Shown here: one piece after another, positions 960-49,508 of the stretch
Layout of the letters: each line of letters begins with the position of its first letter
How positions within the stretch are numbered: the first letter of the stretch is position 1
Assembly (NCBI GenBank): GCA_963793105.1
Contig: CAWBZB010000003.1
Coordinates: 74,770 to 138,769 of the forward strand
Direction: 5' to 3'
Length of the DNA: 64,000 nt
Source of the DNA: an uncultured bacterium
GTDB taxonomy: Bacteria; Actinomycetota; Actinomycetes; S36-B12
Notes under the pieces: model-generated
What the model was told of the DNA's origin: nothing
Seen by the model: the letters and a program-made list of their open reading frames with translations, nothing else
The model's database searches: none
Translations under genes and position numbers: made by a program

Positions 960-2171
960 TCAGCCGGGCAGCGGCAGCCAGCTGACCGGCGAACCCGCCG
1001 GAGTGACCCCCTCGGGCGCCACGGCGAACCCCGTCGACTGGGCCAGGCCGCGCAGCATCGCGGAGCCGCCGTACGGCGAGAGCTCGAAGACGCCATCGAC
1101 GACGTTCCCGGCGATCAGTCGCGTATGACCGGCCGGAGCTCGCAGTTCGTCGGCACTCGGCACCTGCCGAAGCAGGCTCGCTGGCCTCCCCAGCATCGAG
1201 TCCACGATCGGCCGGGCGAGGGTCATGAGGCCGACGATCGCGGAGTGCGGGTTCCCGGGCAGCCCGACGATGGGCACCCCTGCGCCCTCGCCGTCGGGAA
1301 GGCAGGCCAGCAGCATCGGATGCCCCGGGCGGACGGCCACCCGGTCGACGATCAGCTCTCCCCCGGCCGCCCGGATCGCCGCGTGCACGTGGTCGCGCGG
1401 ACCAGCAGCCGTACCGCCCGTGGTGATCACGAGGTCGACGGACGCCGCCGCCGAGGTGAACGCCTGCACCACCGACTCGAGCTGGTCCGCCACGTGCTCA
1501 CGCGAAACCACCTCGGCCCCCAGGCCGGCCAGCCACCGAGGCAGCTGGGGGCCCAGGGAGTCACGCACCCGCCCGTCGCTCGGGATGCCGGATCGGAGCA
1601 ACTCGTCTCCCAGCAGCAGCAGCGTGACCCTGGGGCGCCGGACGACCGGCACGACGTCGTGCCCGGTCGCGGCCAGGAAGCCGGCCAGGGCGGGACCGAC
1701 CTCGGTCCCGGCCGGCGCGATGAGATCGCCGACACGACACTCCTCACCCGCCGCTCGGATGTCGGCTCCACGCACCACGGAGCCACGGATCTCGCCGGCC
1801 GCCACGTCGGCGTCCTCCCATCGCAGCACGGCATCTGCCCCGGCCGGGATCACCGCTCCCGTCGCGATCCGCGCGCCGGTGCCCGGCAGGAGCGCCTCGC
1901 GCAGTGGGGCCCCGGCCGCGACATCGCCGACGATCCGCCAAGGACCCGGGCCGGCGACCACCCAGCCATCCATCGCCGAGGTGTCGAAGCTGGGCAGGTC
2001 GCACGCCGCTGTGCAGTCACGCGCCAGGACCCGCCCCGCAGCCTCGTCCACGGGAACGTCCTCCTGACCGAGCACGGTCGCGACCGAGCCGGCCGCGTCA
2101 CGCGCAGCCCACCAGTCCGCCTCCACGCGAGCCGTGGACGCGCGATCGGCCATGCCGTCCTCCCGGCTCAT
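960..2171 (-). CDS. moeA: molybdopterin molybdenumtransferase MoeA
   Basis: 403-aa ORF with MoeA-like motifs (SAMDGWVV, TTGGTAAGPRDH, GLPGNPHSA). It is the last gene of the co-directional block containing the molybdoenzyme. Confidence 0.85.
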   Translation of the reverse strand: MSREDGMADRASTARVEADWWAARDAAGSVATVLGQEDVPVDEAAGRVLARDCTAACDLPSFDTSAMDGWVVAGPGPWRIVGDVAAGAPLREALLPGTGARIATGAVIPAGADAVLRWEDADVAAGEIRGSVVRGADIRAAGEECRVGDLIAPAGTEVGPALAGFLAATGHDVVPVVRRPRVTLLLLGDELLRSGIPSDGRVRDSLGPQLPRWLAGLGAEVVSREHVADQLESVVQAFTSAAASVDLVITTGGTAAGPRDHVHAAIRAAGGELIVDRVAVRPGHPMLLACLPDGEGAGVPIVGLPGNPHSAIVGLMTLARPIVDSMLGRPASLLRQVPSADELRAPAGHTRLIAGNVVDGVFELSPYGGSAMLRGLAQSTGFAVAPEGVTPAGSPVSWLPLPG

Positions 2172-2204: not shown

Positions 2205-3164
2205 CTACTGTTTCGACGCGGATGCGTCCTCGGGCTGCCCCGCATCGGCACCGGACGTATCGAAGTCCGCCACCTCCATCTTCGCCGGCCAGCGGATGAG
2301 GACGATGATCCCCACGATCACGAGGACGATCCCGGCGATGGTCTCGACCATCTGGATGGCAGATCCCTGCGCGAAGTCGATGATGCTGCCCCCGACCTCC
2401 TGGAACAGGATGAAGGCGGCCATCACGAGGACGAACCAGCCGAAGCCCTTGCGGAGCCGGTCCGGATGGATGCGGCCCGACAGGACGGCGCCGATCACCG
2501 ACCCGATCACCGCCATGGCTGTCACCACGAGCGTGATCGACCAGTCGAACTGGGTCTCCGGGTTCCACGCCACCTGGCCGCCGCTGAACGTCAGCGCGTA
2601 GCCGAGGAATCCGGCCGTCGACTTCATCATCACGACGAGCAGCGACGTTCCCACCGCGATCTGCATGGGCAGGCCGCCGAGGAGCACCAGCGCAGGAACG
2701 ACCAGGAACCCGCCGCCCGCGCCGACCAGTCCCGTCACCAGGCCGACCACGAAGCCGTCGAGGAGGATCCGGAAGAGCGGCAGTCCCGTGTGGGCCTTGC
2801 CCTGCACCTGCTTGCGGCCTCGGATCATGGCAATCGCGGTGACCGCCATCATCACCGCGAAGGCCGCCAGCAGCACCGCCCCCGGCAGAAGGGCTCCGAT
2901 CTGGCCGCCGGCGAACGCACCTGCCATTCCCGCCGCCCCGAAGATCAGGCCGGTGCGCCAGCGCACGCGCCCTGAGCGGGCGTGGTGGATGAGGCCGAAG
3001 GCCGACGTGACCGCGACGACGAACAGGCTCGCGGCGATGGCCTGCTTCGGGTCGAAGCCGACCACGTACACCAGCAGCGGCGTGGTGAGGATCGAGCCGC
3101 CGCCGCCGAGCAGTCCGACGGCCATGCCGATGAAGATCGCGAGGAACGCGGCCAGAGCCGTCAT
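2205..3164 (-). CDS. TauE/SafE family sulfite/organosulfonate exporter-like membrane protein
   Basis: 319-aa polytopic, Gly-rich membrane protein with two similar halves, as in the TauE/SafE (DUF81) family. Its start lies 41 nt downstream of the molybdoenzyme stop on the same strand. Confidence 0.8.
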   Translation of the reverse strand: MTALAAFLAIFIGMAVGLLGGGGSILTTPLLVYVVGFDPKQAIAASLFVVAVTSAFGLIHHARSGRVRWRTGLIFGAAGMAGAFAGGQIGALLPGAVLLAAFAVMMAVTAIAMIRGRKQVQGKAHTGLPLFRILLDGFVVGLVTGLVGAGGGFLVVPALVLLGGLPMQIAVGTSLLVVMMKSTAGFLGYALTFSGGQVAWNPETQFDWSITLVVTAMAVIGSVIGAVLSGRIHPDRLRKGFGWFVLVMAAFILFQEVGGSIIDFAQGSAIQMVETIAGIVLVIVGIIVLIRWPAKMEVADFDTSGADAGQPEDASASKQ

Positions 3165-3204: not shown

Positions 3205-6105
3205 TCACTCGGCACCCTCCTGATTGACGTAGTAGGCCTTGAGTTGCGGCATGACCGGCCGCATCATGAACATCGGCCTTCTCAGGCCCTCCGCGTTCGG
3301 CCCGGGACGGGTCTTCGCGAGCCACTCGCGGTACACCTCGCGCGACTTGGCCGTGTCCACCACGACGTCGCCGTACTTGTCCTCGTCGTGAGCCTTCTCC
3401 ACGGTCACCTTCTGGTGCCAGCAGTGCATGCCCGACCAGGTGTCCGGGTGCACCGCGAAGGCCAGGTTCTGGTGCACGCCCGGGTCCTCCCAGGTGATGC
3501 GCATCGAGTCGGGGTCGCCGCTCGCGAAGGGCCGCACGCCCTCCTTGTACCGAAGGCGCCAGCGACCGTCCTCGAGGCGCCCGACATCGACCTTCCCCGA
3601 GACCCAGCGGCTCCCAGCATCATCCGTGGTGCGCCAACGGCCCATGTGGTGCGAGAGGGCGATGACGCCTGGCTTGATCCCCTCGGTTGCCCAGATCCGG
3701 GCGACGAAGTAGCCGATCTCGGTGCTGACCCGGATCATGTCCCCGGTAGCGAGCCCGAACCGATCGGCATCGACCTTGTTCATCCACACCGGGTGCTTGT
3801 TGCTGATCTCGTTGAGGTACTTGGCGTTTCCGGACCTCGTATGGATCAGCGTCGGCAGCCGGAACGTCGGCACCAGCGCCATCTCCCCCTTGGACGAGTC
3901 GATGGACCGGGCGGAGACGTGCGACTCGATGTAGCAGGGAGTCGCGTACTCCGGCCAGCCGAAGTCCGCCATCGCCGGCGAGTAGAGCTCGAGCTTCCGC
4001 GAGGCGGTGAGCCAGCCCGCCACCTCGGAGCCGTCCTCGAGGACGACGCCGACCGCTCCCGCCTCGCCGACGAGGGGCTTCTGCGTCTCCGGGGTGACGG
4101 GCTTGCGCAGCACGCCGTTCTCGTCCGGCTCGGCCCCCTCCCGCTCAGCAGGGGTGAGCGGACGCTCGTCCTGCCGGTAGAGGTCATTGACGATCTCCAC
4201 GGCGCCGTACTTGCGCATGTACTCCAGGGGCGACAGGCCCTCCTTGGCCGCCTTCTCCGGCAGCCCGGGCACGTTGTTGTCGAAGATGTACCCGAAGTAC
4301 TCGTCGACAGTCACCTTGCTGCCCGGCTGACCCGGCGTCTCGAAGTACTTGCGGATCCCGAGGGAGCCGTCCGGGTCGATGCGCCAGGACAGCTCGATCC
4401 AGAACTCGACCTCCTCCCACACCTCGCCGGGATTCGCGTCGCGCGTGTCGGCGAACTTCTCGCCCAACTTCTCCAGGGCGACCCGGCGGACCGGCTGCCG
4501 GAAGCCGAGCCACTTGCCCGCGTACTGCTCGTACGACATGGTGTCGTGGCGCTCCGTGCTGTGGCCGAACGGGAGGATGTAGTCGGCGAAGATCGCCGTC
4601 TCGTTCCAGGTCGGCGTCATCGCGACATGGCAGCCCACGAGGTTCTCGTCCGAGAGCGCCTCGATCCAGGAGAACCCGTCCGGGTTGGTCCAGACCGGGT
4701 TGTAGACGCGGCTGAAGTAGGTGTCGATCTTGCCGCGACCCTCGAGGAGGAAGTGCGGCAGCAGGATGGAGAGCTCGTTCGTCGACATGGGGAACTCGCT
4801 CGGCCAGAGCAGTTCGTTCCAGGAGTCGTGACCCCCGGGCATGTTCGGGCCGTGGGGAATGAACTTGTTCCAGCCGTTGGGGCTGGTCCCGCCCTTCTGC
4901 CCGATGCTCCCGGTGAGCACGGTGAGGAAGAACAGTGCGCGTGCCACGGCCCAGCCGCCCAGGTTTCCGGCGCTGGCCGCGCGCCAGGTGTGCGCCGCGA
5001 GCTTGCCGTCGCAGCCGGCGACGATCTTCGCCACCTTCTCGATCTGCCTGGCGGGCACGCGGCACTCCTCGGCCGCGAAGTCGAAGGTGTACTTCTGGTA
5101 GTCCTCGGTCAGCGCCGTCTTGAATGCGTCGAAGTCGTCGGCAGCCTGGTCGGGGTGCAGCGCCTGCATGTACGTCTGCCAGTTCACCCACCGGCGGATG
5201 TAGTCCCAGGCGACGGCGTCGGTTCGCAGGAGGTAGGCGGCGATGGCGAGGAGCATGGCCGCCTCGCTGCCCGGCCACGGCGACACCCACACGTCCGCGT
5301 GCGAGGCGGTGTTCGACAGCCGCGGATCGACCACCACCAGCTTCGCCTTGCCATGCACCTTCGCGTCCATGATGCGCTGGGCATGCGGGTTGAAGTAGTG
5401 GCCCGACTCAAGATGCGCGGACAGCAGCAGGATGACCTTGGCGTTCTCGTGGTCCGGGGAGGGCCGGTCGTAGCCGCCCCAGATGGAGTAACCGAAGCGC
5501 GCGCCCGCCGAGCAGATGTTGGTGTGCGTGTTGTTGCCGTCGACGCCCCAGGTCAGCAGGACCCGCTCGATGAAGCCGTCCTCCCCGTGGCGCCCCACGT
5601 GGTACATGACCTCATTGCGCCGGTCCTCGATGATCGCGGTGCGGATCCGCCCGGCGATGTCGTCCATCGCGTCATCCCACGACACTCGCTCGAACTGCGC
5701 GCTGCCGCGTGGACCGCTGCGCTTGAGGGGGTACAGGATGCGCTCGGGGTCAGAGGTCTGGTTGATCGTGGCTGGGCCCTTGGCGCAGTTGCGTCCGCGC
5801 GAACCCGGATGTGCGGGGTTGCCCTCGACCTTCACGACCTCTTTGGTCTCCCGGTCGACGTACGCGAGCAGCCCGCACGCGGACTCGCAGTTGAAGCAGG
5901 TGGTGGGAACCAGCATGTAGTGCTTCTCGACCTTGCGGGGGTGTGCCTTCGCGTCGTACATGACGACGTCGTCCCAGGTGTCCACCGGCGGGTAGTTGGA
6001 CACCGTCTCGCGGACGCGCAGGCCGACATGCTCGGGTCGGTCGGCGCCCACGGACCCGGCTGACGGTCCGTGCGGCTCGGTAGCGGACCGATCGCGTGGC
6101 TTCAT
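3205..6105 (-). CDS. bis-MGD molybdopterin oxidoreductase catalytic subunit (Psr/Phs/Soe-like), no Tat signal
   Basis: 966-aa ORF. The N-terminal CFNCESACGLL...x27...NCAKG is the C-x2-C-x3-C-xn-C 4Fe-4S motif of MopB enzymes. AAGGGA lies 8 nt upstream of the ATG at 6105. No RRxF(L/K) twin-arginine motif occurs in the 55 residues before the Cys motif. Substrate is not determinable from sequence alone. Confidence 0.85.
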   Translation of the reverse strand: MKPRDRSATEPHGPSAGSVGADRPEHVGLRVRETVSNYPPVDTWDDVVMYDAKAHPRKVEKHYMLVPTTCFNCESACGLLAYVDRETKEVVKVEGNPAHPGSRGRNCAKGPATINQTSDPERILYPLKRSGPRGSAQFERVSWDDAMDDIAGRIRTAIIEDRRNEVMYHVGRHGEDGFIERVLLTWGVDGNNTHTNICSAGARFGYSIWGGYDRPSPDHENAKVILLLSAHLESGHYFNPHAQRIMDAKVHGKAKLVVVDPRLSNTASHADVWVSPWPGSEAAMLLAIAAYLLRTDAVAWDYIRRWVNWQTYMQALHPDQAADDFDAFKTALTEDYQKYTFDFAAEECRVPARQIEKVAKIVAGCDGKLAAHTWRAASAGNLGGWAVARALFFLTVLTGSIGQKGGTSPNGWNKFIPHGPNMPGGHDSWNELLWPSEFPMSTNELSILLPHFLLEGRGKIDTYFSRVYNPVWTNPDGFSWIEALSDENLVGCHVAMTPTWNETAIFADYILPFGHSTERHDTMSYEQYAGKWLGFRQPVRRVALEKLGEKFADTRDANPGEVWEEVEFWIELSWRIDPDGSLGIRKYFETPGQPGSKVTVDEYFGYIFDNNVPGLPEKAAKEGLSPLEYMRKYGAVEIVNDLYRQDERPLTPAEREGAEPDENGVLRKPVTPETQKPLVGEAGAVGVVLEDGSEVAGWLTASRKLELYSPAMADFGWPEYATPCYIESHVSARSIDSSKGEMALVPTFRLPTLIHTRSGNAKYLNEISNKHPVWMNKVDADRFGLATGDMIRVSTEIGYFVARIWATEGIKPGVIALSHHMGRWRTTDDAGSRWVSGKVDVGRLEDGRWRLRYKEGVRPFASGDPDSMRITWEDPGVHQNLAFAVHPDTWSGMHCWHQKVTVEKAHDEDKYGDVVVDTAKSREVYREWLAKTRPGPNAEGLRRPMFMMRPVMPQLKAYYVNQEGAE

Positions 6106-6160
6106 GTGTTTCGTCCCTTCTCGGACGTCGTGGTCGAGGGAGGTTCCGTGCCGTGCCGTG

Positions 6161-7684
6161 TCAGGAGAGCGGCGGATCCTGACCGGCCATCACGAAGGCC
6201 TTCTCATGCAGGTACAGCGCGGGCTGGACGATGAGGCCGGCGAGCGCCGCCACCAGGGCAGGAGCCCCGAACAGCACGGTGGCGGCCACGGCCGCCCCGA
6301 GGACCGACAGGGCCACGGAGCCACCCCAGAACATGCGTGCGTAGCGACCGTGGGTGATCGCGTGCGCGGCCACCTCCGCATTGCGCGTCGAGTGCTTGCC
6401 ACCGAACTCCACCGCCGTGATGAGCAGGTGCGCCACCACGCCGATGATCAGTGCCCACGACAGCCACTCAATGGTGCTGCGCGAAGGCTCGATCACGAGT
6501 GCCACGATCAGGAGGACTCCGGACCCGACCATCGCGGCCTGCGCCTGGAGGTGCCAGAACAGCACCGGCGACTGCCAGAGATCGCGACCCTCGGCCTGCC
6601 CGAAGAGGAAGGCGGTGTATCCGGCTGTCATCACGGCGGCCGGGACGGCGGGCCAGGCCAGCCAGTCGATCGCCGACTCCTGACCGAACACGCCGGCGAG
6701 GAACCACAGGCCCCCTACCGCGGCCATGATCCCCAGGAAGATCCCACCGATCGCGAGCCACGAGGTCCGGTTGATCTTGCGCGGATCGAGGAGGAACAGG
6801 AAGCGATCCGGACGCTTGAGATCCCAGATCAGGAGCACCGCCGTCACCAGCAGGAACAGTTCCGCGATGAATGGAGTGGCGATGGTCAGGAGTCCTGAGC
6901 GGTCGTCGGACGAGATGATGAGGAGTGCCCCGAGGAGGAGGGCGCCGGCCGCGATGGACTTCGTCCACAGGTAGGTCCAGACCTTCCAACCCCACGGTCG
7001 TGGGTGGGAGGTGTTGAGGGTGGTTCGAGCGTTGCTGACCGGGTCGCCGGGAAGCTCGGCTGCGGTCTCGAGGCGCAGGGGGTCCGCGTCCGCCCAGAGG
7101 TAGGTGCCATCCACGGGTGCGGAGAGCGGGTCGAGGACGGTCTGGTCCGCGCCCACGTAGAAGACGTTCGGCCGCGTGCCCTGCTCCGGTGTACGCACGT
7201 TCACCGGCGTGATGCTCAGGAACTTGCTGATCCCGCTCGTCGGATCATCGACGTCGCCCATCCAGATCGACTGAGTGGGGCACACCTGCACGCACGCAGG
7301 CTCGAGCCCGTTGTCGACGCGGTGTGCGCAGAAGTTGCACTTGGCCGCTGTGTGGGTGTTCTCATCGATGTAGATCGCGTCGTAGGGGCAGGCCTGCATG
7401 CACATCTTGCAGCCGATGCACTGCTCGTTGTCGAAGTCGACGATCCCGTCATCGCGCTTGAACAGAGCCGAGGTCGGGCAGGCCTTGACGCAGGGTGCGT
7501 CGGTGCAGTGGTTGCACCGCATGACGCCCATCTCGCGCGTGACGTCGGGGTACTCCCCCTTGTCCACATACTTGACCCAGGTTCGGAACTGACCTAGCGG
7601 GACGTCGTGCTCGGTCTTGCAGGCGACGGTGCAGGCATGGCAGCCGATACACGTCCGCTGGTCAATGGCGAAGCCATATTGCAC
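6161..7684 (-). CDS. fused 4Fe-4S ferredoxin (NrfC/PsrB/DmsB-like) and NrfD/PsrC-like 8-TM quinone-interacting membrane subunit
   Basis: 507-aa ORF. The first ~170 aa carry four Cys clusters (CIGCHACTVAC, CNHCTDAPC, CIGCKMCMQAC, CNFC...CVQVC). The rest has about 8 hydrophobic helices. There is no signal or Tat motif; the protein starts MQYGFAIDQRTC. Confidence 0.85.
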   Translation of the reverse strand: MQYGFAIDQRTCIGCHACTVACKTEHDVPLGQFRTWVKYVDKGEYPDVTREMGVMRCNHCTDAPCVKACPTSALFKRDDGIVDFDNEQCIGCKMCMQACPYDAIYIDENTHTAAKCNFCAHRVDNGLEPACVQVCPTQSIWMGDVDDPTSGISKFLSITPVNVRTPEQGTRPNVFYVGADQTVLDPLSAPVDGTYLWADADPLRLETAAELPGDPVSNARTTLNTSHPRPWGWKVWTYLWTKSIAAGALLLGALLIISSDDRSGLLTIATPFIAELFLLVTAVLLIWDLKRPDRFLFLLDPRKINRTSWLAIGGIFLGIMAAVGGLWFLAGVFGQESAIDWLAWPAVPAAVMTAGYTAFLFGQAEGRDLWQSPVLFWHLQAQAAMVGSGVLLIVALVIEPSRSTIEWLSWALIIGVVAHLLITAVEFGGKHSTRNAEVAAHAITHGRYARMFWGGSVALSVLGAAVAATVLFGAPALVAALAGLIVQPALYLHEKAFVMAGQDPPLS

Positions 7685-7688
7685 GGGA

Positions 7689-7919
7689 TCACTTCTTTCG
7701 GATGACGAAGCTCAGGACTCCCTGATCCTCAGACGACTCGACCAACTCGTTCCCAGTCTGGCTTGCCCACGCGGGGATGTCAGAGCGAGCGCCGTTGTCC
7801 GTCGCGTCGACGCGCATCAGCTGGCCCGACGTCAGCTCCTTGGCCGCCTTCGCCGCCATGAGGACGGGCATGGGGCAGTTCTGCCCGCGGGCGTCTACGA
7901 CCTTGTCGATGGTGTCCAT
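7689..7919 (-). CDS. tusA: TusA-like sulfur carrier protein
   Basis: The internal ATG at 7919 of ORF 7689..8024 gives a 76-aa protein, MDTIDKVVDARGQNCPMPVLMAAKA..., with the TusA CPxP active-site motif. The 35-codon upstream extension is Arg/Ser-rich and overlaps the dsrE-like gene's 3' end. Confidence 0.8.
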   Translation of the reverse strand: MDTIDKVVDARGQNCPMPVLMAAKAAKELTSGQLMRVDATDNGARSDIPAWASQTGNELVESSEDQGVLSFVIRKK

Positions 7920-7947
7920 GAAATCTCCCGAGCGTTGTTGTGAGCGG

Positions 7948-8448
7948 TCAGATGAAGAGGCTGATAGAGGACTTCGACATGCGGGCCAGCGCCGTCGCCG
8001 CGCCGATCGGCGGCCCGAGGCCATCGACCATCTGATCGGCCTCGATGCCGAGCAGGTCCATGGTCATCTGGCACGGCCACATCTGGACGCCCATCTCCTG
8101 GCCCATCGCGAACAGGTCCTCAGGGGTCATGAGGTTGTTCTTCTTCGCAACCTTGCGCATCATCCATCGGCCCATGCCGGCCATCTTCATCTTGGAAAGG
8201 TGCGCCTTCTTCATGCCCGGGGCGTTCATGCCCGCAAGCATCTTCGTCAGGGCGTCGTTGCCGGTGATGCGGACGTCGTCGCGCACCAGGGGGAACAGTC
8301 CCCAGAACGTGTAGAACACGGCGACGTCCATGCCATTCGCCGCCGCCGTGGAGCTCAGGATCATCGTCGGCCAGAGCTTGTCGAGGTCACCGCTGAAGGC
8401 GATGATCGTCATCATCTCGGGGTCTTTGCCCTGCTCGTTCTCAGTCAC
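7948..8448 (-). CDS. DsrE/DsrF-like sulfur-transfer family protein
   Basis: 166-aa ORF with a GTG start. DsrE/F-like fold signature (IIAFSGDLDK..., conserved Cys in MWPCQMT). First gene of the minus-strand operon. Confidence 0.75.
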   Translation of the reverse strand: MTENEQGKDPEMMTIIAFSGDLDKLWPTMILSSTAAANGMDVAVFYTFWGLFPLVRDDVRITGNDALTKMLAGMNAPGMKKAHLSKMKMAGMGRWMMRKVAKKNNLMTPEDLFAMGQEMGVQMWPCQMTMDLLGIEADQMVDGLGPPIGAATALARMSKSSISLFI

Positions 8449-8649
8449 TTCTGGCTCCCGCCTCGCTTGCCTTGCGCCGAAGGTATGGGTCCGACGCCGT
8501 CAGATCAAGCCCTTGGCCTGAATTGCCTCCGAATTCGGAATCAAGTTCAGAAAGTTCAGAAAACCGCTGTTCAAAAGGGGTATTGGCATATTAGCGTCTG
8601 CGCATATGTCGATTCAAGCAGACATTCTCATCCGTGTGAAGGAGGCGAC
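8449..8649. promoter_or_regulatory. divergent promoter/operator region between dsrE-like operon and rhodanese-MBL/arsR operon
   Basis: A 201-bp conspicuously AT-richer gap between divergent starts. It contains a perfect 12-bp palindrome TCCGAATTCGGA (8528-8539), a tandem 9-mer AAGTTCAGA x2 (8543-8560) and the inverted repeat GTCTGC...GCAGAC (about 8596-8623). A GGAGG RBS lies at 8641-8645. Confidence 0.5.
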
Positions 8650-9786
8650 ATGGGTCGCACCGTGACGAGTAGGGAGCTCTACGACGAGATCGAGCAGGGG
8701 ACGATCCCGCTGCTCCTCGACGTGCGGAACCAGGACGAGTTCGCGGCCTGGCAGGTCGAGGGAGTCCGTCCCGTCGAGACTCGCAACGTGCCGATCTGGA
8801 TGGCGGTCGAGGGAATCGAGGACCTCGCTCAGGAGGTGCCGGACAACACGGTGGTGATCTGTGCCCACGGGAACGGCAGCGATCTGCTCCTGGACATGCT
8901 CGCCGATGAGGGCAAGCACGTGCGCAACCTCGAGGGCGGCACCCAGGCCTGGGCGGCGCTCCTCGTGCCTCGCGCCCTGCCGGGCTTGCCGACCGGCATG
9001 GTGGGGTGGCAGGTACAGCGCCCGTCGAAGGCCTGCCTGTCCTACGTGATCGGCGTACCGGGCCACAACGCGATCGTCGTCGACCCCGCGCGATTCCCGC
9101 AGCCCTACATCGACCTCGCGGCCAGCGAGGGCATGACGATCACCCATGTGATCGATACCCATGTCCATGCGGACCACATCACCGGTGGCCCGGAGCTCGC
9201 GGAGCGCACCGGGGCGACCTATCACGTGCCCATCGAGGACACCGGCAGGACGCCAACCCCGTTCGCCAACGAGCCCCTTCCCGACGGCGCCGAGATCGAC
9301 CTCGGCGACGCGAAGGTGCACATCCTGTCCATCAAGATGCCAGGGCACACCCCCGGATCGACGTGCATCAACCTGCCGGGCAGCTTCCTGCTGACCGGCG
9401 ACACCGTGTTCGTGCGCGGCGTCGGCCGACCGGACCTGACCGGCAAGGCGGAGGAGCTCGCCCGGGAGCTCTTCCACACCGTCCACGATCGGCTGCGGCC
9501 GCTGGACCCGGCGACGATGATCCTTCCCGCCCACTGGTCGTTCGACGACGAAATCGGACCCGATGGGCTCGTGCGCACGGATCTCCAGTCTGTGTTCTCG
9601 TCGACCTTGCTCAACGAGGAGGACATGGTCACCTTCGTCAAGGAGATCGTGACATCGCTCCCGAGCGCACCGGATACCTACGACACCATCCGGCTCGTCA
9701 ACTCCGGCCGGCAGACGGCCACTGCCGATGAGCTGGAGTTCCTGGAGATCGGCAAGAACCAGTGCGCCGCCTCCACGACAACGTAG
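8650..9786 (+). CDS. rhodanese domain fused to MBL-fold hydrolase (persulfide dioxygenase-like, Blh/CstB-type)
   Basis: In-frame ATG at 8650 within ORF 7777..9786, preceded by GGAGG. The N-terminal rhodanese domain has an active-site-like loop, ICAHGNGS. It is followed by an MBL domain with THVHADHITGG. The ORF part upstream of 8650 is antisense to dsrE/tusA. Confidence 0.8.
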   Translation: MGRTVTSRELYDEIEQGTIPLLLDVRNQDEFAAWQVEGVRPVETRNVPIWMAVEGIEDLAQEVPDNTVVICAHGNGSDLLLDMLADEGKHVRNLEGGTQAWAALLVPRALPGLPTGMVGWQVQRPSKACLSYVIGVPGHNAIVVDPARFPQPYIDLAASEGMTITHVIDTHVHADHITGGPELAERTGATYHVPIEDTGRTPTPFANEPLPDGAEIDLGDAKVHILSIKMPGHTPGSTCINLPGSFLLTGDTVFVRGVGRPDLTGKAEELARELFHTVHDRLRPLDPATMILPAHWSFDDEIGPDGLVRTDLQSVFSSTLLNEEDMVTFVKEIVTSLPSAPDTYDTIRLVNSGRQTATADELEFLEIGKNQCAASTTT

Positions 9787-9853
9787 AGCGGCGAGGCGGA
9801 CCGTCCGACGTGACCCCGTAGTGTGACCAGACACCCAGCAGTCAGGAGAGCGC

Positions 9854-10213
9854 ATGGACCGGCAGACGTCCGCCGAGCTCTACGAACTGCATGCCCGGAT
9901 CTGCAAGGCCATTGCCGATCCCAAACGCCTCCTCATCATCTCCGAGCTCCGGGGTGGCCCGATGACCGTGGGCGATCTCTCGGAATCCCTCGAGATCAGC
10001 CAGTCCAACACCAGCCAGCACCTGGCGGTCCTGCGTGACCGCGGCATCGTCACGGCCCAGAAGGATGGGCTCAACGTCTACTACCGCCTGTCGAGCAAGA
10101 AGGTCCTCCGTGCGATCGACCTGCTGCGCGAGTTCATGGTCGAGCAGATCGGCGACCAGAGCAGGCTGGGTCGGGCCGCCACGCGCGAGAAGCCCGCGCC
10201 GGCGCGCCGCTAG
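9854..10213 (+). CDS. ArsR/SmtB family transcriptional regulator
   Basis: 119-aa ORF with a winged-HTH (VGDLSESLEISQSNTSQHLAVLRDRGIV) and an AGGAGAG RBS. It has a single Cys (C17, ARICKAI). Confidence 0.85.
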   Translation: MDRQTSAELYELHARICKAIADPKRLLIISELRGGPMTVGDLSESLEISQSNTSQHLAVLRDRGIVTAQKDGLNVYYRLSSKKVLRAIDLLREFMVEQIGDQSRLGRAATREKPAPARR

Positions 10214-10437
10214 CCAGACCCCCCACTAGGCGGAACGCGCGTGGGACCACCGAGAGGGTGCCGGTGGGTGCGTAGCCGTAGGTCGCCCTCGAGGCACTCC
10301 GGCGTGTCTTGCCGACTCCGGTTCACGGCGCCTCCTGACGCAGGAACCGGCCCGAATCCGGGGCCGATCCAAGGCGCTCACGGACGCCAAAAGGGGGATA
10401 ATTGAGTTGGAGGGACCGGAAGAAGGAGGTGTCTCAG

Positions 10438-11241
10438 ATGATGACGATGACTTCCCACAGCAGCTTCGGCCCAACCGGAACGGCACCCGCCCCAGCATCC
10501 TCAGGAATGGCACTCTTTGCGATGCCGGTGCATGCCCCGGCGACCGGACTGACGTCACCACCGACTCCGACCGCACCACAACACCATGTTGAGCATCGCG
10601 GCTGGATCTATGCGGCGATCGCCCTGATCGCTGCCGCACTGGTTCTCGGAGGAATGGCCGCGTACCAGTACGTCACTACCCAAGACACGACCCCGGCGAC
10701 GACCGCGGTTTCGGCCATCCCGGCCGAATACGCCGGCGTCAGCCTGCCGCAAGCCATGCGACTGGCCGACCAGGCCGCCCTCGCGGCCACCATCCCGGCC
10801 GAATACGCCGGCGTCAGCCTGCCGCAAGCCATGCGACTGGCCGACCAGGCCGCCCTCGCGGCCACCATCCCGGCCGAATACGCCGGCGTCAGCCTGCCGC
10901 AAGCCATGCGACTGGCCGACCAGGCCGCCCTCGCGGCCACCATCCCGGCCGAATACGCCGGCGTCAGCCTGCCGCAAGCCATGCGACTGGCCGACCAGGC
11001 CGCCCTCGCGGCCACCATCCCGGCCGAATACGCCGGCGTCAGCCTGCCGCAAGCCATGCGACTGGCCGACCAGGCCGCCCTCGCGGCCACCATCCCGGCC
11101 GAATACGCCGGCGTCAGCCTGCCGCAAGCCATGCGACTGGCCGACCAGGCCGCCCTCGCGGCCACCATCCCGGCCGAATACGCCGGCGTCAGCCTGCCGC
11201 AAGCCATGCGACTGGCCGACCTGGCCGCCGCGAACCAGTGA
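10438..11241 (+). CDS. single-pass membrane protein with 25-aa tandem repeats (unknown function)
   Basis: ATG at 10438 preceded by GAAGGAGG, in frame within ORF 10402..11241. The protein has a Pro/Thr-rich N-terminus, one TM helix (WIYAAIALIAAALVLGGMAAY), then 7 copies of IPAEYAGVSLPQAMRLADQAALAAT. No family recognised. Confidence 0.6.
   Translation: MMTMTSHSSFGPTGTAPAPASSGMALFAMPVHAPATGLTSPPTPTAPQHHVEHRGWIYAAIALIAAALVLGGMAAYQYVTTQDTTPATTAVSAIPAEYAGVSLPQAMRLADQAALAATIPAEYAGVSLPQAMRLADQAALAATIPAEYAGVSLPQAMRLADQAALAATIPAEYAGVSLPQAMRLADQAALAATIPAEYAGVSLPQAMRLADQAALAATIPAEYAGVSLPQAMRLADQAALAATIPAEYAGVSLPQAMRLADLAAANQ
10717..11229. repeat. tandem repeat, 75-bp unit, about 6.8 copies; six complete copies identical
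   Basis: Units start at 10717, 10792, 10867, 10942, 11017, 11092 and 11167. The first six are base-identical by eye, and the last diverges from 11222. The period is 25 codons, so the frame is preserved. Confidence 0.95.
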
Positions 11242-11581
11242 AGCGAAGGGAGTGATGCCGACTTCGGAGTCCGGTTACTCCGCAAGGGAAAGGTGCAATT
11301 CCAAACCTGTGGCCCCCGGCGCGATGCCGAGGGCCACGTATGTGCTCACTGCCGGTGAGCTCGGTTGACGTCGGATTCCTTGGTGAGCGCACACTCACGA
11401 AGGCGACGATCTCGAGTGTCCGCGGCACGCCGGTCAACGCCTCACCAACGGCCATCAAACGTTCACCGGGTCGCCCGCTCGCGGCACCCGGGACTCCATC
11501 TGGCCCGCCTACCGTCGCGATCACTTCGTCGTTCTGCGAAGCAACCGAGCACCGATCTTCCACCTTGAGAGGACCAACCAC

Positions 11582-12862
11582 GTGCGACAGCAACGACTTC
11601 TGACAGCGGGCCTGGCCACCGCCATGATCGCCCTGAGCGCCGGGGCCGCGGTCGCCGCGACCGGCAGCGAGACCGGACCCATGGGCTTCACTCCCATCGC
11701 CGGGTCCGCCGGCTACACCGGCGGCACGAGCGGGACCTGGAACCAGGCCGCGCCCTGGAACATCCCGGACGGCTTCAGCCAGGAACTCGTCTCGGGCGAG
11801 CTCACCGACCGCTGCGGCGGCGAGGGCCTGAACGTGTACGGCGGCGGCCTCGATGACTGGCACGACATGAACACCGTCAACGAGACGGGAGCCAAGGCAG
11901 GGCGCTACCTGTACCGCACCCACGAAGTCCGCCTCGCGAACCCCGGATCCGACAGCACCTACCCGGCCGGCGGCGCCGTTACGGTCGTCGACCTCGAGAC
12001 CTGCGACGCCAGGGTGATCGCGCAGGATGCGACGTGGACCGCTCTTGACGGCATCCGCTGGACCCCGTGGGGCACGGTCCTGTTCGCCGAGGAGACCACT
12101 GACGGCCGCCTGTTCGAACTGGTCCTGGACAAGAAGGACCCCATGTCCGGCACCGCAGTCGAGCGGCCGGCACTCGGGCTGCTCGCCCACGAGGGCATCG
12201 AGGTCGGGGCCGACGGCTCGGTCTACGTCATCGACGAGTACCTCGGTCAGACGAACGGCGTAGGCGGCGGCATCTACCGCTTCGTGCCCGACCGGCGAGG
12301 CGACCTCACGTCCGGAAGCCTCTACGCCCTCAAGGTCGACGGCGCCGACGGCGTCGGGCAGGGTTCATGGGTCGGCCCGATCGACTCCGCGACCGCACGC
12401 ACGTCCGGCACGGCGGCGGGCGGAACCGGCTACGAGCGACCCGAGGACCTCGAGCTCATCGGGAACGTGCTCTACGTCGCCGTCACCGCGGGCCAGGGGT
12501 ACGACGGCCGGGTGCTGGCCATCGACCTGTCCAGCCTCGCCGTGACCGACTATGTGAAGCCCGGCGTCAACATCCCGCTGGAACTCGATGGCACCCAGAC
12601 CGGACTGGACAACCCAGACAACCTCGCCGAAGGTCCCGATGGGCGCCTCTGGATCGTCGAGGACAACGTGCCGTCGGACATCTGGGTGGCGCAGGGCCGC
12701 GGTGGCGTGGCCACGTCCGTCGACCTCTTCGCGACGCTGACCGACCCCGGCGCCGAGGGCACGGGCATCTACTTCGGCAAGGACCCGAAGACGCTGTTCG
12801 TGAACGTCCAGCACTCGTCCGCCTCTGACGGCGACGGGACCTGGGCGATCTCCGCACGCTGA
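11582..12862 (+). CDS. secreted DUF839/PhoX-like beta-propeller protein
   Basis: 426-aa ORF with a GTG start. Signal peptide MRQQRLLTAGLATAMIALSAGAAVAA. Motifs DNPDNLAEGPDGRLWIVEDN and YERPEDLE, as in DUF839/PhoX-like proteins. Confidence 0.7.
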   Translation: MRQQRLLTAGLATAMIALSAGAAVAATGSETGPMGFTPIAGSAGYTGGTSGTWNQAAPWNIPDGFSQELVSGELTDRCGGEGLNVYGGGLDDWHDMNTVNETGAKAGRYLYRTHEVRLANPGSDSTYPAGGAVTVVDLETCDARVIAQDATWTALDGIRWTPWGTVLFAEETTDGRLFELVLDKKDPMSGTAVERPALGLLAHEGIEVGADGSVYVIDEYLGQTNGVGGGIYRFVPDRRGDLTSGSLYALKVDGADGVGQGSWVGPIDSATARTSGTAAGGTGYERPEDLELIGNVLYVAVTAGQGYDGRVLAIDLSSLAVTDYVKPGVNIPLELDGTQTGLDNPDNLAEGPDGRLWIVEDNVPSDIWVAQGRGGVATSVDLFATLTDPGAEGTGIYFGKDPKTLFVNVQHSSASDGDGTWAISAR

Positions 12863-13558: not shown

Positions 13559-14071
13559 CTAGCGGATGGTGATGTTGGCGAACCTCGCCTTGCCGACCCA
13601 CGTGCGCAACCCGACCATCGTCCCCGAGGGAGTCGGGTACCCACACGCGTTGCCCGCAATCGCCTGGGACAGGCTCGGAAGGTCGAACAACCGCTCGCCA
13701 TCGATGGTGGCGTACAGGGTGTCGCCCTGCGCGGCTACCACGATCTTGTGCGACCCGTAGATCGACAGACCGGCCGGCATCTGCGTCGAGGCGATCGGCG
13801 TCGAGCACTCCTTGCCGCCGTACCACTGGCGGACCAGGAACCGGTTCCCGAAGCCCGGGTCGTACTGGAACGTGAGGCCCGACACGTCGGCAGCATTTCC
13901 CGTGGCCGTGGCTCGGAACCAGACGCCATAGCCCTTTCCGGACTGAAGGTTGGCATCTGCCGCCAGAACCATGTCCTGGGAGTCGAACTGACGGGTGGAG
14001 AACACTCTTGTCTCGCCGCCGTTGTCGAGGGCGACCACCTGGTCGTAGATGCTCGCCGAGCCCCGCATCAC
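13559..14071 (-). CDS. hypothetical protein, beta-sandwich (concanavalin-like/DUF1080-like?) domain only, no signal peptide
   Basis: 170-aa ORF (GTG-ATG start) with beta-rich sequence (GYGVWFRATATGN..., ...GKARFANITIR). Family assignment is tentative. The domain appears to begin right at the ORF start, in the same frame as and 55 nt after the upstream gene's TGA. Confidence 0.4.
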   Translation of the reverse strand: MMRGSASIYDQVVALDNGGETRVFSTRQFDSQDMVLAADANLQSGKGYGVWFRATATGNAADVSGLTFQYDPGFGNRFLVRQWYGGKECSTPIASTQMPAGLSIYGSHKIVVAAQGDTLYATIDGERLFDLPSLSQAIAGNACGYPTPSGTMVGLRTWVGKARFANITIR

Positions 14072-40769: not shown

Positions 40770-42749
40770 TCAGGTGTGCTGCAGTCTCGTGCTCTGACGG
40801 ATGATGTCGAGGACCCGGTCCATGACCTTCGTCAGGTCGTAGTCCTTGGGGGTGAAGACGGCGGCGATGCCGGCGTCCTCGAGGGCGCGGGCGTCCTGTT
40901 CGGGGATGATCCCGCCGAGGATGACCGGGACGTCGTCGAGACCGGCGGCGCTCAGCCCGCGCAGCACCTCGGGCACCACCAGCAGGTGCGATCCGGAGAG
41001 GATCGACAGTCCGACGCAGTCGACGTCCTCCTGGACGGCGGCGGCCACGATCTCCTCCGGAGTCAGGCGGATGCCCTGGTAGATCACCTCGAATCCGGCG
41101 TCCCGCGCGGCGACCGCGACCTGCTCGGCACCGTTGGAGTGCCCGTCGAGGCCGGGCTTGGCCACCAGGATCCGCAGCCGATGGCCGAGCTCATCGCCGG
41201 TGGCGGCGACGGCCGCACGGAGTTCCGCGAGGCCGGGGCGTTCACCCGATCCGACCGATCCGCTCACTCCCGTCGGCGCCCGGAACTCTCCGAAGACCGT
41301 GCGAAGGGCGCCGGCCCACTCACCGGTGGTCACACCCGCACGGGCGCAGTCCAGCGATGCCTCCATGAGGTTCGCGCCTGACCTGGCGTCCGCGACCAGT
41401 CGGGCCAGGGACGAGTCGACGGCGAGCGGGTCCCGCTGCGCCCGCCATTCGTCGAGCGCGATGATCGCTCGTTCCTCCACCGCGGGATCCACCCGCTGGA
41501 TCGCCGCGTCGAGGTTCTCGGTGAGCGGGCTCGGCTCGCTGGAAGCGAACGCGTTCACCCCGACGATGAGCTCCTCGCCGGACTCCACCCGCCGCCGCCG
41601 GTCCGCGTGCGAGGCCACGAGTGCGCTCTTCAGGTACCCGGACTCCACGGCCGCGACGGCGCCCCCGAGCTCCTCGATGCGCGCCATCTCCTCCCGGGCG
41701 GCCACGACGATCTCGTCCACCTTGGCCTCGACCACGTGCGAGCCGTCGAAGATGTCCTCGTACTCCAGCAGGTCGGTCTCCAGCGCCAGGACCTGCTGCA
41801 TGCGCAGGCTCCATTGCTGGTCCCACGGGCGCGGCAGGCCCAGCGCCTCGTTCCACGCCGGCAGCTGCACCGCTCGCGCCCGCGCATGCTTCGACAGCGT
41901 CACGCCCAGCATCTCCAGCACGATCCGCTGGACGTTGTTCTCCGGCTGGGCCTCGGTCAGCCCGAGCGAGTTCACCTGGACGCCGTAGCGGAATCTGCGT
42001 GCCTTCTCCTCCGTGACCCCGTAGCGGTCACGAGTGATCTCGTCCCACAGCTGGACGAACGCCCGCATCTTGCACATCTCCTCCACGAACCGCACGCCCG
42101 CGTTCACGAAGAAGGAGATCCGGGACACCACCTCGGAGAGGCGCTCGGCCGGCACCTGGCCGGAATCGCGGACGGCGTCGAGGACCGCGATCGCCGAGGA
42201 CAGCGCGAACGCCACCTCCTGCACGGGCGTCGCCCCCGCCTCCTGCAGGTGGTACGAGCAGATGTTGATCGGATTCCACTTCGGGGTGTTCTGCACGCTC
42301 CACGCGATCATGTCCGTGATCAGCCGCATCGAGGGCTCCGGCGGGAACACATAGGTGCCCCGGGACAGGTACTCCTTGATGATGTCGTTCTGCGTCGTGC
42401 CCGACAGCTCACGGCGATCGGCACCCTGCTCGTCGGCTACCGCCACGTACAGCGCCATGAGCCACATCGCGGTGGCGTTGATCGTCATCGACGTGTTCAT
42501 GCGATCCAGGGGGATGCCGTCCAGCAATGCGCGCATGTCGCCCAGGTCCACGACGGGTACCCCGACCTTGCCGACCTCCCCGCGGGCCAACGGCGAGTCC
42601 GGGTCGTATCCGGTCTGCGTGGGCAGATCGAAGGCGATCGACAGCCCGGTCTGCCCCTTCTCCAGGTTGAGCCGGTACAGCTCGTTCGACTCGCGCGCGG
42701 ACGAGTGGCCGGCATAGGTGCGCATCACCCACGGCTTGCTGCGGCTCAT
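40770..42749 (-). CDS. ethylmalonyl-CoA mutase-like B12-dependent acyl-CoA mutase (MeaA/Ecm)
   Basis: The internal ATG at 42749 gives MSRSKPWVMRTYAGHSSARESNELYR... (659 aa). The mutase barrel is followed by a C-terminal B12-binding domain with DGHSNG (DxHxxG). Confidence 0.85.
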   Translation of the reverse strand: MSRSKPWVMRTYAGHSSARESNELYRLNLEKGQTGLSIAFDLPTQTGYDPDSPLARGEVGKVGVPVVDLGDMRALLDGIPLDRMNTSMTINATAMWLMALYVAVADEQGADRRELSGTTQNDIIKEYLSRGTYVFPPEPSMRLITDMIAWSVQNTPKWNPINICSYHLQEAGATPVQEVAFALSSAIAVLDAVRDSGQVPAERLSEVVSRISFFVNAGVRFVEEMCKMRAFVQLWDEITRDRYGVTEEKARRFRYGVQVNSLGLTEAQPENNVQRIVLEMLGVTLSKHARARAVQLPAWNEALGLPRPWDQQWSLRMQQVLALETDLLEYEDIFDGSHVVEAKVDEIVVAAREEMARIEELGGAVAAVESGYLKSALVASHADRRRRVESGEELIVGVNAFASSEPSPLTENLDAAIQRVDPAVEERAIIALDEWRAQRDPLAVDSSLARLVADARSGANLMEASLDCARAGVTTGEWAGALRTVFGEFRAPTGVSGSVGSGERPGLAELRAAVAATGDELGHRLRILVAKPGLDGHSNGAEQVAVAARDAGFEVIYQGIRLTPEEIVAAAVQEDVDCVGLSILSGSHLLVVPEVLRGLSAAGLDDVPVILGGIIPEQDARALEDAGIAAVFTPKDYDLTKVMDRVLDIIRQSTRLQHT

Positions 42750-42922
42750 CGCCCGCTGCCTCCTCGATCCGGGGTCCAGTCTGCCCGCTTCGCCAGCCTC
42801 GATCGCCGCTCGGGGACGACGATGCACCATCGGCAACATCCTTGCGTACCCAACTATATGGTGTCCAAGTAAGTGACGGAGAGGAGCCCGCGGGGGCGGG
42901 TTCCGCGGGACCTTCCGGCGTT

Positions 42923-45622: not shown

Positions 45623-45663
45623 TTGATATCCTAATATTTGTTGTCCATAGAAAATCGTGGACA
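45623..45663. promoter_or_regulatory. candidate promoter/operator upstream of icmF operon
   Basis: AT-rich island. TTGATA at 45623-45628. Inverted repeat TGTCCA (45642-45647) N10 TGGACA (45658-45663). GAGGAG lies 5 nt before the GTG at 45699. Confidence 0.35.
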
Positions 45664-45698
45664 CACACCGGTATCCGCACGCCGAACGAGGAGTGCCC

Positions 45699-48924: not shown

Positions 48925-48957
48925 GCGGGCAGAGCGCCCCGGCAAGGGGAGGTTCTG

Positions 48958-49464: not shown

Positions 49465-49508
49465 CCTCGCGCCCGACCGGGCGCGCACGACACGAGAGAG
49501 TGACACGC

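Follow-up and report, generated by a model that had tools for sequence, protein, structure and literature searches.

The stretch of DNA analysed here, hereafter called the window, comprises 64,000 nucleotides (nt) of an uncultured bacterium of the actinomycetotal lineage S36-B12 (GenBank assembly GCA_963793105.1, contig CAWBZB010000003.1, positions 74,770 to 138,769 of the forward strand). On its minus strand, from position 8448 to 960, it carries six closely spaced genes, namely dsrE2-like, tusA, BC, A, tauE/safE and moeA. The subject of this work is the pair in the middle of this run: BC (7684..6161, minus strand) encodes a protein of 507 amino acids (aa), in which a four-cluster iron-sulfur (Fe-S) subunit (B) is fused to an NrfD/PsrC-type membrane anchor (C), and A (3205..6105, minus strand) encodes a 966-aa catalytic subunit of the Mo/W-bis(pyranopterin guanine dinucleotide) (bisPGD) type. 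BC starts with GTG and has the N-terminus MQYGFAIDQRTCIGC; the stop codon of tusA lies 4 nt ahead of this GTG, while an in-frame stop is found nine codons upstream of it with no start codon in between, so that an N-terminal extension of the fusion is impossible. For A, the ATG is the first start codon past an in-frame stop. The positions of both open reading frames (ORFs) and the union of B and C in one 507-aa ORF, both claimed in the initial annotation, are confirmed, as the ORF is uninterrupted and matches Pfam Fer4_11 at residues 55-144 and NrfD at residues 224-462.

Residues 1-200 of the fusion (7085..7684, minus strand) form the Fe-S domain (Fer4_11, 2.4e-27), whose 16 cluster-binding cysteines, arranged in the groups C12/15/18/22, C57/60/65/69, C89/92/95/99 and C116/119/131/135, are all invariant in 58 sequences. 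The domain is 46% identical to PsrB (2vpw_B, Foldseek) and 45-47% identical to TtrB; its AlphaFold model is poor, with a predicted local distance difference test score (pLDDT) of about 30-60. A linker of residues 201-232 (6989..7084, minus strand), likewise of low pLDDT, leads to the first transmembrane helix (TM1) and ends in the conserved R/K-rich segment ARTTLNTSHPRPWGW; a PWGW motif and its flanking R/K residues are conserved in this region. The anchor domain (residues 233-507 and the stop codon, 6161..6988, minus strand; Pfam NrfD, 2.2e-17) is modelled with pLDDT above 90 as eight transmembrane helices at residues 233-258, 264-289, 309-332, 336-355, 375-398, 402-428, 449-470 and 476-502. 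Foldseek matched it to PsrC (2vpw_C) with a TM-score of 0.76, a root mean square deviation of 3.7 Å and 19% identity, and also to ActC; a profile of the anchor domain gave no significant sequence match to the solved NrfD-type chains, the relation being visible by fold comparison only.

In subunit A, the Pfam domains Molybdop_Fe4S4, Molybdopterin and Molydop_binding were all detected above their cutoffs. The cysteines of the FS0 cluster (C70-x2-C73-x3-C77...C107, encoded at 5785..5898) are invariant in 45 sequences that include distant relatives, and so in 45 sequences is Cys198 of the segment NICSAG (5512..5514). This residue aligns with the cysteines of ArrA SSVCAE and PsrA SLCTAP, segments that we take to hold the Mo-ligand cysteine, and Cys198 is the putative Mo ligand of A. 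The model of A reaches a pLDDT of 81.8 and finds its best folds in ArrA and PsrA, at an identity of just 19-20%. With FS0 and the molybdopterin domains, a cysteine at the conserved position, the 16-cysteine ferredoxin module and an eight-helix NrfD/PsrC-type anchor, A and BC constitute a complex iron-sulfur molybdoenzyme of the three-module type within the dimethyl sulfoxide (DMSO) reductase superfamily.

The fusion is not peculiar to this assembly. More than 120 clusters at the 90% identity level, out of 5.8 billion proteins searched, contain proteins of 494-525 aa that cover 96-100% of the query at 64-97% identity. When 1.84 billion cluster representatives at the 50% identity level were searched without filters, about 40 of the best 150 representatives were complete fusions, with identities down to 35% and with the first cysteine group right at the start of the protein; representatives that appeared to hold an unfused Fe-S domain proved, upon cluster look-up, to be mostly fragments or members of clusters that also hold fused proteins. 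Scanning one genome per species for the anchor domain matched at least 484 species-level genomes. We checked the loci of the best 80 of these, all of them Actinomycetota (metagenome-assembled genomes labelled Nanopelagicales, Intrasporangium, Gordonia, Saccharopolyspora, Kribbella and Nocardioidaceae), together with one locus of Streptomyces caeni, and found the anchor fused to the ferredoxin domain in 79 of the 81, the exceptions being one contig edge and one probable frameshift. The fused gene pair is also present in cultured strains, on plasmid pRHL3 of Rhodococcus jostii RHA1 (RHA1_RS43840/43835) and the Thermomicrobium roseum DSM 5159 megaplasmid (TRD_RS12035/12030), as well as on haloarchaeal replicons of Natrinema, Halomarina and Halomicrococcus; A of the window shares 72% identity with its counterpart in RHA1, 58% with that of T. 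roseum and 52% with that of Natrinema halophilum. Full-length conservation in the clusters, the checked loci and the cultured strains thereby rules out an assembly artefact, and the missed stop or indel that the initial annotation had named as a possible source of the fusion is not what lies behind it. The fused molybdoenzyme is a real, widely conserved and uncharacterised clade, whose cultured and haloarchaeal members are labelled in databases only as '4Fe-4S dicluster domain-containing protein', 'NrfD/PsrC family ... anchor' and 'molybdopterin-dependent oxidoreductase'. Full-text literature searches returned no description of a ferredoxin-NrfD fusion, an earlier mention elsewhere being possible.

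Neither A nor the fusion shows a signal for the twin-arginine translocation (Tat) pathway, as had been proposed from the window itself. The initial annotation counted 55 residues ahead of the first cysteine motif of A; this number does not hold, with 69 residues from the ATG or 51 from an internal GTG at codon 19, yet the argument built on it is unaffected, as the stretch contains no RRxFLK-type motif. In-frame stops upstream of both ORFs leave no room for a Tat motif supplied by a start further upstream. In none of the A subunits of 76 related loci is FS0 preceded by a Tat-like motif or a hydrophobic stretch, the most hydrophobic 12-residue window in this region scoring at most 1.1 on the Kyte-Doolittle scale. 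No N-terminal twin-arginine motif occurs in the roughly 40 complete fusions either, and the fusions examined are all signal-less and partnered with an equally signal-less A, the co-occurrence that the initial annotation had suggested looking for.

The closest unfused relatives of A that we found are proteins of 1090-1120 aa from Sulfurimonas and Sulfurovum (40-43% identity), followed by one from Azoarcus sp. KH32C (31%). As in the window, their genes run in the order B, C, A, whereas they differ from it in carrying a Tat signal with a hydrophobic region (SRRTFLKG in the Campylobacterota; (S/T)RRTFLK overall, with TRRTFLK as the second form), in having separate B and C genes and a gene for a TorD-family chaperone, and in the opposite Lys+Arg bias of their anchors. 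Where the examined Tat-type relatives possess an NrfD-type anchor, its gene is likewise separate from that of B. In an alignment of the N-termini, A of the window, RHA1, T. roseum and Natrinema starts just upstream of a YPPxxxW(D/N) block that follows the signal peptide in the Campylobacterota proteins and is missing from the Azoarcus protein, so that A of the window resembles the mature form of the Campylobacterota proteins. A neighbour-joining tree, built without bootstrap support and without SoeA, SreA and PsrA, places the fused-type A subunits in one monophyletic group that is sister to the Campylobacterota Tat clade. A homology search seeded with the Sulfurovum protein returned only Campylobacterota proteins, which are shown as Tat substrates, and no Soe enzyme.

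Two observations on these Tat-type loci may be recorded here. The A gene on a plasmid of Sulfurovum mangrovi (NZ_CP087125.1; positions 6977-10175 of our locus L086) is split into two overlapping frames around 7950-8020 and also lacks the N-terminal signal region of its intact homologues, being either a pseudogene or the product of a sequencing frameshift. An extended operon is common to pAZKH of Azoarcus sp. KH32C (4245-12136 of locus L084) and the Sulfurovum plasmid (5084-12140 of L086), and comprises B, C, A, the TorD-family chaperone and a 4Fe-4S protein of about 370 aa, with hypothetical genes that separate the last two members in Azoarcus but follow both of them in Sulfurovum. In Azoarcus, the operon is preceded by genes for a PhnD-type binding protein, a sensor kinase and a sigma-54 regulator. 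This set looks like an uncharacterised periplasmic respiratory system.

The distribution of positive charges gives the anchor a predicted orientation. With the eight helices as boundaries, Lys+Arg average 12.9 on the N-terminal face and 1.1 on the opposite face, and the N-terminal count is the larger one in 40 of 40 diverse fusions. Within one alignment of homologous loops, the ratio of N-terminal to opposite face is 14:2 for the fusion of the window, compared to 5:8 for the Sulfurovum anchor, 3:4 for that of Azoarcus, 5:7 for TtrC of Escherichia coli and 7:6 for TtrC of Azospirillum. The family-wide loop that is DLHQPxR(F/M) in Tat-type anchors has, for example, the sequence DLKRPDRF...RK.NR in the window, while their opposite-face loops YRHKKD and KRGCKVAPVK are replaced by SSDDRSG and GQESAI. 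By the positive-inside rule, this inverted bias therefore predicts an inverted anchor, and the placement of the Fe-S domain on the inner side, which the initial annotation had offered as a topology prediction, gains support from it. Nearly all invariant residues of the anchor are found on the N-terminal face, namely PWGW before TM1 and K243, DLKRPxRF after TM2, SWL before TM3, Y357 and QAEGRDLWQSP after TM4, and the C-terminal AGQxxPLS; the conserved loops include DLKRPxRF and GQAEGRDLWQSP. In PsrC and ActC, the N-terminal-type face is the side of Fe-S subunit docking and of quinone binding (PMC8076601). Since the invariant residues sit on this face, the docking surface and the probable quinone site would have moved inside together with the Fe-S domain. 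TusA, DsrE2 and Mrp/NBP35, encoded near many of the fusions, are cytoplasmic proteins. The sHdr system, which adjoins some of them, is cytoplasmic as well (PMC11094781).

Four independent lines thus bear on the orientation: the lack of a signal, the comparison with exported relatives, the charge bias and the cytoplasmic partners. From these we strongly infer that the Fe-S domain and the docking and quinone-site loops lie on the cytoplasmic side, and we consider the architecture together with its inward orientation very likely. In this arrangement, the N-terminus, the C-terminus and loops 2-3, 4-5 and 6-7 would be inside, and a chain FS0-FS1-FS4 would end above the conserved loops of the cytoplasmic face, where helices 1-4 would hold a quinone pocket. 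On the predicted topology, the orientation of the membrane module is changed relative to the nearest exported relatives, a change documented by the fusion, the inverted charge and the missing Tat signal.

Export requirements offer a reason for the fusion. A four-cluster ferredoxin domain is loaded in the cytoplasm and can reach the periplasm through Tat only, and an eight-helix bundle requires Sec/YidC and is not carried by Tat substrates. Tat substrates can have one C-terminal helix (PMC10924467). Because Tat cannot pass a polytopic, Sec/YidC-inserted domain that follows a folded and cluster-loaded one, a covalent B-C protein is expected just where B stays inside. The fusion would be possible since no part of it needs export; TM1 would serve as a signal-anchor, and the covalent bond would fix both the 1:1 stoichiometry and the membrane targeting. 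The TorD-type chaperone would be replaced in many genomes by the Fe-S loading ATPase Mrp/NBP35, which is encoded near the fusion in 33 of the 65 loci with enough flanking sequence for neighbour counts, as well as in RHA1 and Natrinema, and such a replacement fits cytoplasmic maturation. Precedents for fusions within the NrfCD/PsrBC unit are ActB of alternative complex III, which joins Mo-like and Fe-S domains, and FdnH and HybA, which have a C-terminal helix of their own (PMC6303296, PMC10924467). Unlike the protein of the window, these have a periplasmic Fe-S domain and use Tat, and none of them joins the Fe-S subunit to a polytopic NrfD. In the survey of Duarte et al. 2018, the B-C module consists of two proteins throughout, and ActB is the sole fusion mentioned.

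The operon begins with the gene for a dsrE2-like sulfur carrier of 166 aa (7948..8448, minus strand; Pfam DrsE_2, 3.9e-42), which scores 80 bits with the NCBIfam model DsrE2, under its cutoff, and contains a single cysteine, within WPCQMT. It is followed by tusA (76 aa, 7689..7919, minus strand), with an ATG at 7919, a Pfam TusA match of 1.6e-22 on the longer ORF and the active-site motif CPMP seen by direct reading. Downstream of A by 40 nt lies a gene for a TauE/SafE-family anion (sulfite) exporter (2205..3164, minus strand; Pfam TauE, 5.1e-50), and the same-strand run ends with moeA, encoding a molybdopterin molybdenumtransferase (960..2171, minus strand; Pfam MoeA_N, MoCF_biosynth and MoeA_C). 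Divergently, on the plus strand, a fusion of rhodanese and metallo-beta-lactamase (MBL) is encoded at 8650..9786 (Pfam Rhodanese and Lactamase_B; start codon checked), which is persulfide-dioxygenase-like in that its CAHGNGS and HVHADH, read directly, are the CxxGxxS and HxHxDH motifs of rhodanese-persulfide-dioxygenase fusions. Next to it, a BigR-like regulator of the ArsR/SmtB family is encoded at 9854..10213 (plus strand; Pfam HTH_5), which exceeds the cutoff of NCBIfam HTH_metalloreg with 88.9 bits; among the specific models, the sulfite sensor BigR scores 60.2 bits and the Cd/Pb sensor CmtR 60.0 bits, both far under their cutoffs. A scan for promoters and terminators gave nothing above chance. 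In the middle of the 201-bp intergenic region (8449-8649) that separates dsrE2 from the divergent rhodanese-MBL gene lies a 22-nt imperfect palindrome (8523-8544; halves TTGCCTCCGAA and TTCGGAATCAA), which is a candidate operator of the ArsR/BigR-like regulator; none of the 90 other loci retrieved contains the exact 12-nt core.

Much of this arrangement is conserved. In the 65 loci, A lies directly downstream of the fusion in 64, and TusA is encoded nearby in 56, rhodanese-MBL in 54, DsrE2 and ArsR in 53 each, TauE in 10 and sHdr in 3. The tusA gene precedes the fusion gene by 8-11 bp in most related loci. TauE, a member of the sulfite exporter family, is found downstream in Nanopelagicales-type loci, while an sHdr-LbpA cluster with lipoate-maturation genes adjoins the fusion genes in Streptomyces caeni and two Gordonia species. 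Upstream of the gene pair in T. roseum is a gene for a CsoR/CstR-type regulator, and the RHA1 locus has two more MBL proteins, a thioredoxin and two ArsR regulators. Rhodanese, TusA and DsrE2 form a sulfur-relay set of sulfur oxidisers, and sHdr converts sulfane sulfur to sulfite in the cytoplasm (PMC11094781). Judged from gene context, the conserved neighbours point to cytoplasmic sulfur oxidation or detoxification.

Among characterised enzymes, SoeABC of Allochromatium vinosum, Aquifex aeolicus and Ruegeria pomeroyi resembles the system of the window most in its features: a Mo-bisPGD subunit with FS0, a four-cluster Fe-S protein and an eight-helix NrfD-type anchor, no Tat signal, peripheral subunits predicted on the cytoplasmic side with an inverted anchor (PMC8076601, PMC6620896), and a tie to pathways that make sulfite in the cytoplasm. 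It has been described as a signal-less sulfite:quinone oxidoreductase facing the N-side, with SoeC presumably inverted (PMC8076601). That SoeABC is the known cytoplasm-facing exception, as the initial annotation had it, matches the literature, but not as the only one, since further signal-less Soe-like clades have been named (PMC8076601, PMC6620896, PMC4378227). SoeABC consists of three separate polypeptides, whereas B and C are one polypeptide in the window, where moreover the gene order is BC-A and TusA and DsrE2 appear co-transcribed with the enzyme. The range of the window enzyme across Actinomycetota, Thermomicrobia and Halobacteria comprises phyla not given for SoeC in the KEGG-template survey of Calisto and Pereira, which lists SoeC in Proteobacteria, a few Clostridia and Aquificae only and mentions neither Actinobacteria nor a fusion (PMC8076601). 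No Soe model was matched in NCBIfam and no Soe entry found in the PDB, and tblastn of A and of the Fe-S domain against plasmids found no Soe sequence. One Ralstonia plasmid match was rejected as Soe, being a soluble 758-aa enzyme, and so were Azospirillum plasmid matches named 'DsrO', which belong to Ttr operons. The latter name is given to the Fe-S subunit of a ttrBCA-like operon in several Azospirillum records, including a plasmid of Azospirillum oryzae (NZ_CP054616.1; 5881-6615 of our locus L088), and is probably a naming error in the source; the operon encodes B, C and an A of 1035 aa that carries a Tat signal, along with a PhnD-type binding protein and a response regulator.

PsrABC of Thermus thermophilus (PDB 2VPW) is the best solved match for C, by Foldseek E-value also for B, and is among the best for A, and its anchor likewise forms eight helices as two four-helix bundles; unlike the window enzyme, it is Tat-exported, faces the periplasm and consists of three separate chains, and A of the window is about 200 residues longer than PsrA and 20% identical to it. 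The Campylobacterota proteins share the YPPxxxW(D/N) block before FS0 with the window. TtrBCA has the gene order B-C-A, and in NCBIfam the Fe-S domain matches TtrB best, yet TtrA and TtrB carry Tat signals, and for A the identity is only about 23% and confined to part of the protein. Membership in Ttr was rejected (TtrA 113 bits against a cutoff of 1750, TtrB 198 against 416, no signals), and so was membership in Psr/Phs (PhsA 161 bits against a cutoff of 694, no Tat signal on A, predicted cytoplasmic orientation). To PhsA of an E. coli plasmid, A is 25% identical over half its length.

For the function of A and BC, we favour a SoeABC-like, inward-facing dehydrogenase of sulfite, or of carrier-bound sulfane sulfur, that would reduce quinone, and give this reading about an even chance; as to sulfite being the substrate, the scales are likewise roughly level. 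Sulfite oxidation by the cytoplasm-facing SoeABC is the precedent (PMC8076601, PMC6620896, PMC4378227). In such a pathway, a TusA/DsrE2 relay would handle sulfane sulfur, the persulfide-dioxygenase-like rhodanese-MBL enzyme, or sHdr in some genomes, would make sulfite from it, and the molybdoenzyme would oxidise sulfite to sulfate while reducing menaquinone, as SoeABC does. Surplus sulfite would leave through TauE, and the ArsR/BigR-like repressor would control the divergent operons.

Several points weigh against this assignment. The likeness to SoeABC is one of architecture, predicted orientation and gene context, and the nearest identified relatives of A are uncharacterised Tat-exported enzymes. 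No NCBIfam equivalog was found above cutoff for A of the window or for its relatives from T. roseum, Natrinema, Azoarcus and Sulfurimonas. The soe genes, which we take from the numbering Alvin_2491-2489 to be ordered A-B-C, differ in order from BC-A. Translational coupling of tusA to the fusion gene would agree with sulfur bound to a protein as the substrate no less than with free sulfite, and the Psr/Phs-like affinities of A may leave room for a reductase. The evidence on topology is predictive throughout, and the Fe-S domain, from which the docking geometry would be read, is poorly modelled.

The spacing of tusA directly ahead of the fusion gene, in the window as in most related loci, brings up an enzyme of the same architecture and orientation that would take sulfane sulfur or thiosulfonate from TusA or DsrE2 and thus act as a carrier-persulfide:quinone oxidoreductase. 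TusA and DsrE2 co-occur in 53-56 of the 65 loci, most loci hold no other redox enzyme for an O2-independent oxidation of sulfane sulfur, and A belongs with the Psr/Phs-like enzymes of the family, for which sulfane sulfur is the substrate. Nevertheless, T. roseum and the haloarchaea have the enzyme with no adjacent TusA or DsrE, sHdr already performs this step next door in three genomes, and we know of no Mo-bisPGD enzyme that oxidises a protein persulfide, which makes this assignment unlikely in our view. Equally built on the two carriers, though distinctly unlikely, is the idea that the fused enzyme is not a sulfite dehydrogenase at all but the core of an unrecognised cytoplasmic route, in which TusA/DsrE2 would feed sulfane or thiosulfonate sulfur to the Mo-bisPGD subunit and electrons would pass to menaquinone via the inverted NrfD. 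If true, this route would stand beside rDsr and sHdr as a third option, present in hundreds of species of actinobacteria, Thermomicrobia and haloarchaea, and the clade would be a natural example of a respiratory module flipped in the membrane from a Tat-exported ancestor. A reading in the opposite direction is a reductase that faces the cytoplasm and uses quinol to reduce polysulfide, thiosulfate, tetrathionate or an organic polysulfane, and that would turn excess sulfane sulfur into sulfide, with TusA/DsrE2 presenting the substrate. The top NCBIfam and PDB similarities are indeed to the reductases PhsA, PsrA and ArrA and to TtrB, and the Aquifex enzyme now named SoeABC is said, in the work of Boughanemi et al. 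of 2020, to have been first described as a sulfur/tetrathionate reductase. A reductase is nonetheless quite improbable, given the oxidative or detoxifying context of a persulfide-dioxygenase-like enzyme, sHdr and the sulfite exporter TauE, the unfavourable energetics of thiosulfate or polysulfide reduction by menaquinol according to textbook redox potentials, and the futility of making sulfide in the cytoplasm beside a persulfide-dioxygenase-like enzyme.

The adjacent ArsR/SmtB regulator and the rank of ArrA as best PDB match would also suit an oxyanion other than those of sulfur, such as arsenite, selenite or thioarsenate, and a signal-less Soe-like cluster of Thioalkalivibrio is arsenite-induced (PMC6620896). 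As, however, the sulfite-sensing BigR is marginally the top model for the regulator, with BigR and CmtR alike far under cutoff, and as no ars, arr or aio gene appeared among the conserved neighbours in a screen that had no arsenic-gene queries, we rate such a substrate very improbable. Hardly credible is a complex that faces the periplasm after all and gets there in some unrecognised way, for instance by hitch-hiking on another Tat substrate or by N-out insertion of the fusion. It would agree with the close relatives of A outside the fused clade, which are all Tat substrates, and the topology is a prediction; against it stand the consistent absence of signals from the A subunits and complete fusions, and a strong positive-inside bias inverted with respect to Tat-type anchors. 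In addition, a 200-residue four-cluster domain ahead of eight helices cannot, by general knowledge of Tat and Sec, cross Sec unfolded and gain its clusters outside, there is no TorD-type chaperone, and the partners TusA, DsrE2, sHdr and Mrp/NBP35 are cytoplasmic.

Apart from the sulfur cluster, the window contains further features of note. A 279-aa ORF at 10402-11241 (plus strand) has a hydrophobic segment followed by a repeat array at 10715-11229, with 6.9 tandem copies (99%) of a 75-nt unit encoding 'IPAEYAGVSLPQAMRLADQAALAAT'; the near identity of the copies suggests a very recent expansion, or a collapse or expansion in the assembly. Between the sulfur cluster and a housekeeping block (prfB, ftsE, ftsX and Tad-pilus genes) lie a gene for a predicted secreted PhoX-like protein (11582-12862, plus strand; partial match to Pfam PhoX, 3e-16) and a 170-aa ORF with no Pfam match (13559-14071, minus strand). 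An uninterrupted ORF of 1566 aa at 45657-50357 (plus strand) combines B12-binding, MeaB GTPase and methylmalonyl-CoA-mutase domains, as in an IcmF-like fusion, with C-terminal 3-hydroxyacyl-CoA dehydrogenase domains; its neighbours include a second mutase (40770-42839), an HpcH/citrate-lyase-like aldolase and an acyl-CoA dehydrogenase.

Enzymes of this kind that face inward are already known, and it is the fused inward-facing clade that is uncharacterised. To our knowledge, cytoplasm-facing members of the superfamily are known essentially from SoeABC alone, for which the inversion of SoeC is inferred only. The Fe-S subunit tied to the N-terminus of the anchor is a built-in topology reporter, whereby the fused clade makes the orientation of NrfD-type subunits, the side of their quinone site and the direction of any proton pathway in them directly testable, and genetically tractable hosts are available, notably R. 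jostii RHA1 with pRHL3. Together with its exported relatives, the clade provides a comparative pair for re-orientation, with Tat signal, TorD and separate B and C on one side, no signal, Mrp/NBP35 and fused BC on the other, and positive charges on opposite faces. Owing to the generic annotation of these proteins and to a SoeC distribution in which no Actinobacteria are listed (PMC8076601), a capacity for sulfite or sulfane oxidation may be overlooked in sulfur-cycle inventories, in Actinomycetota including lineages labelled Nanopelagicales, Rhodococcus, Gordonia and Nocardioides, in Thermomicrobium and in haloarchaea.

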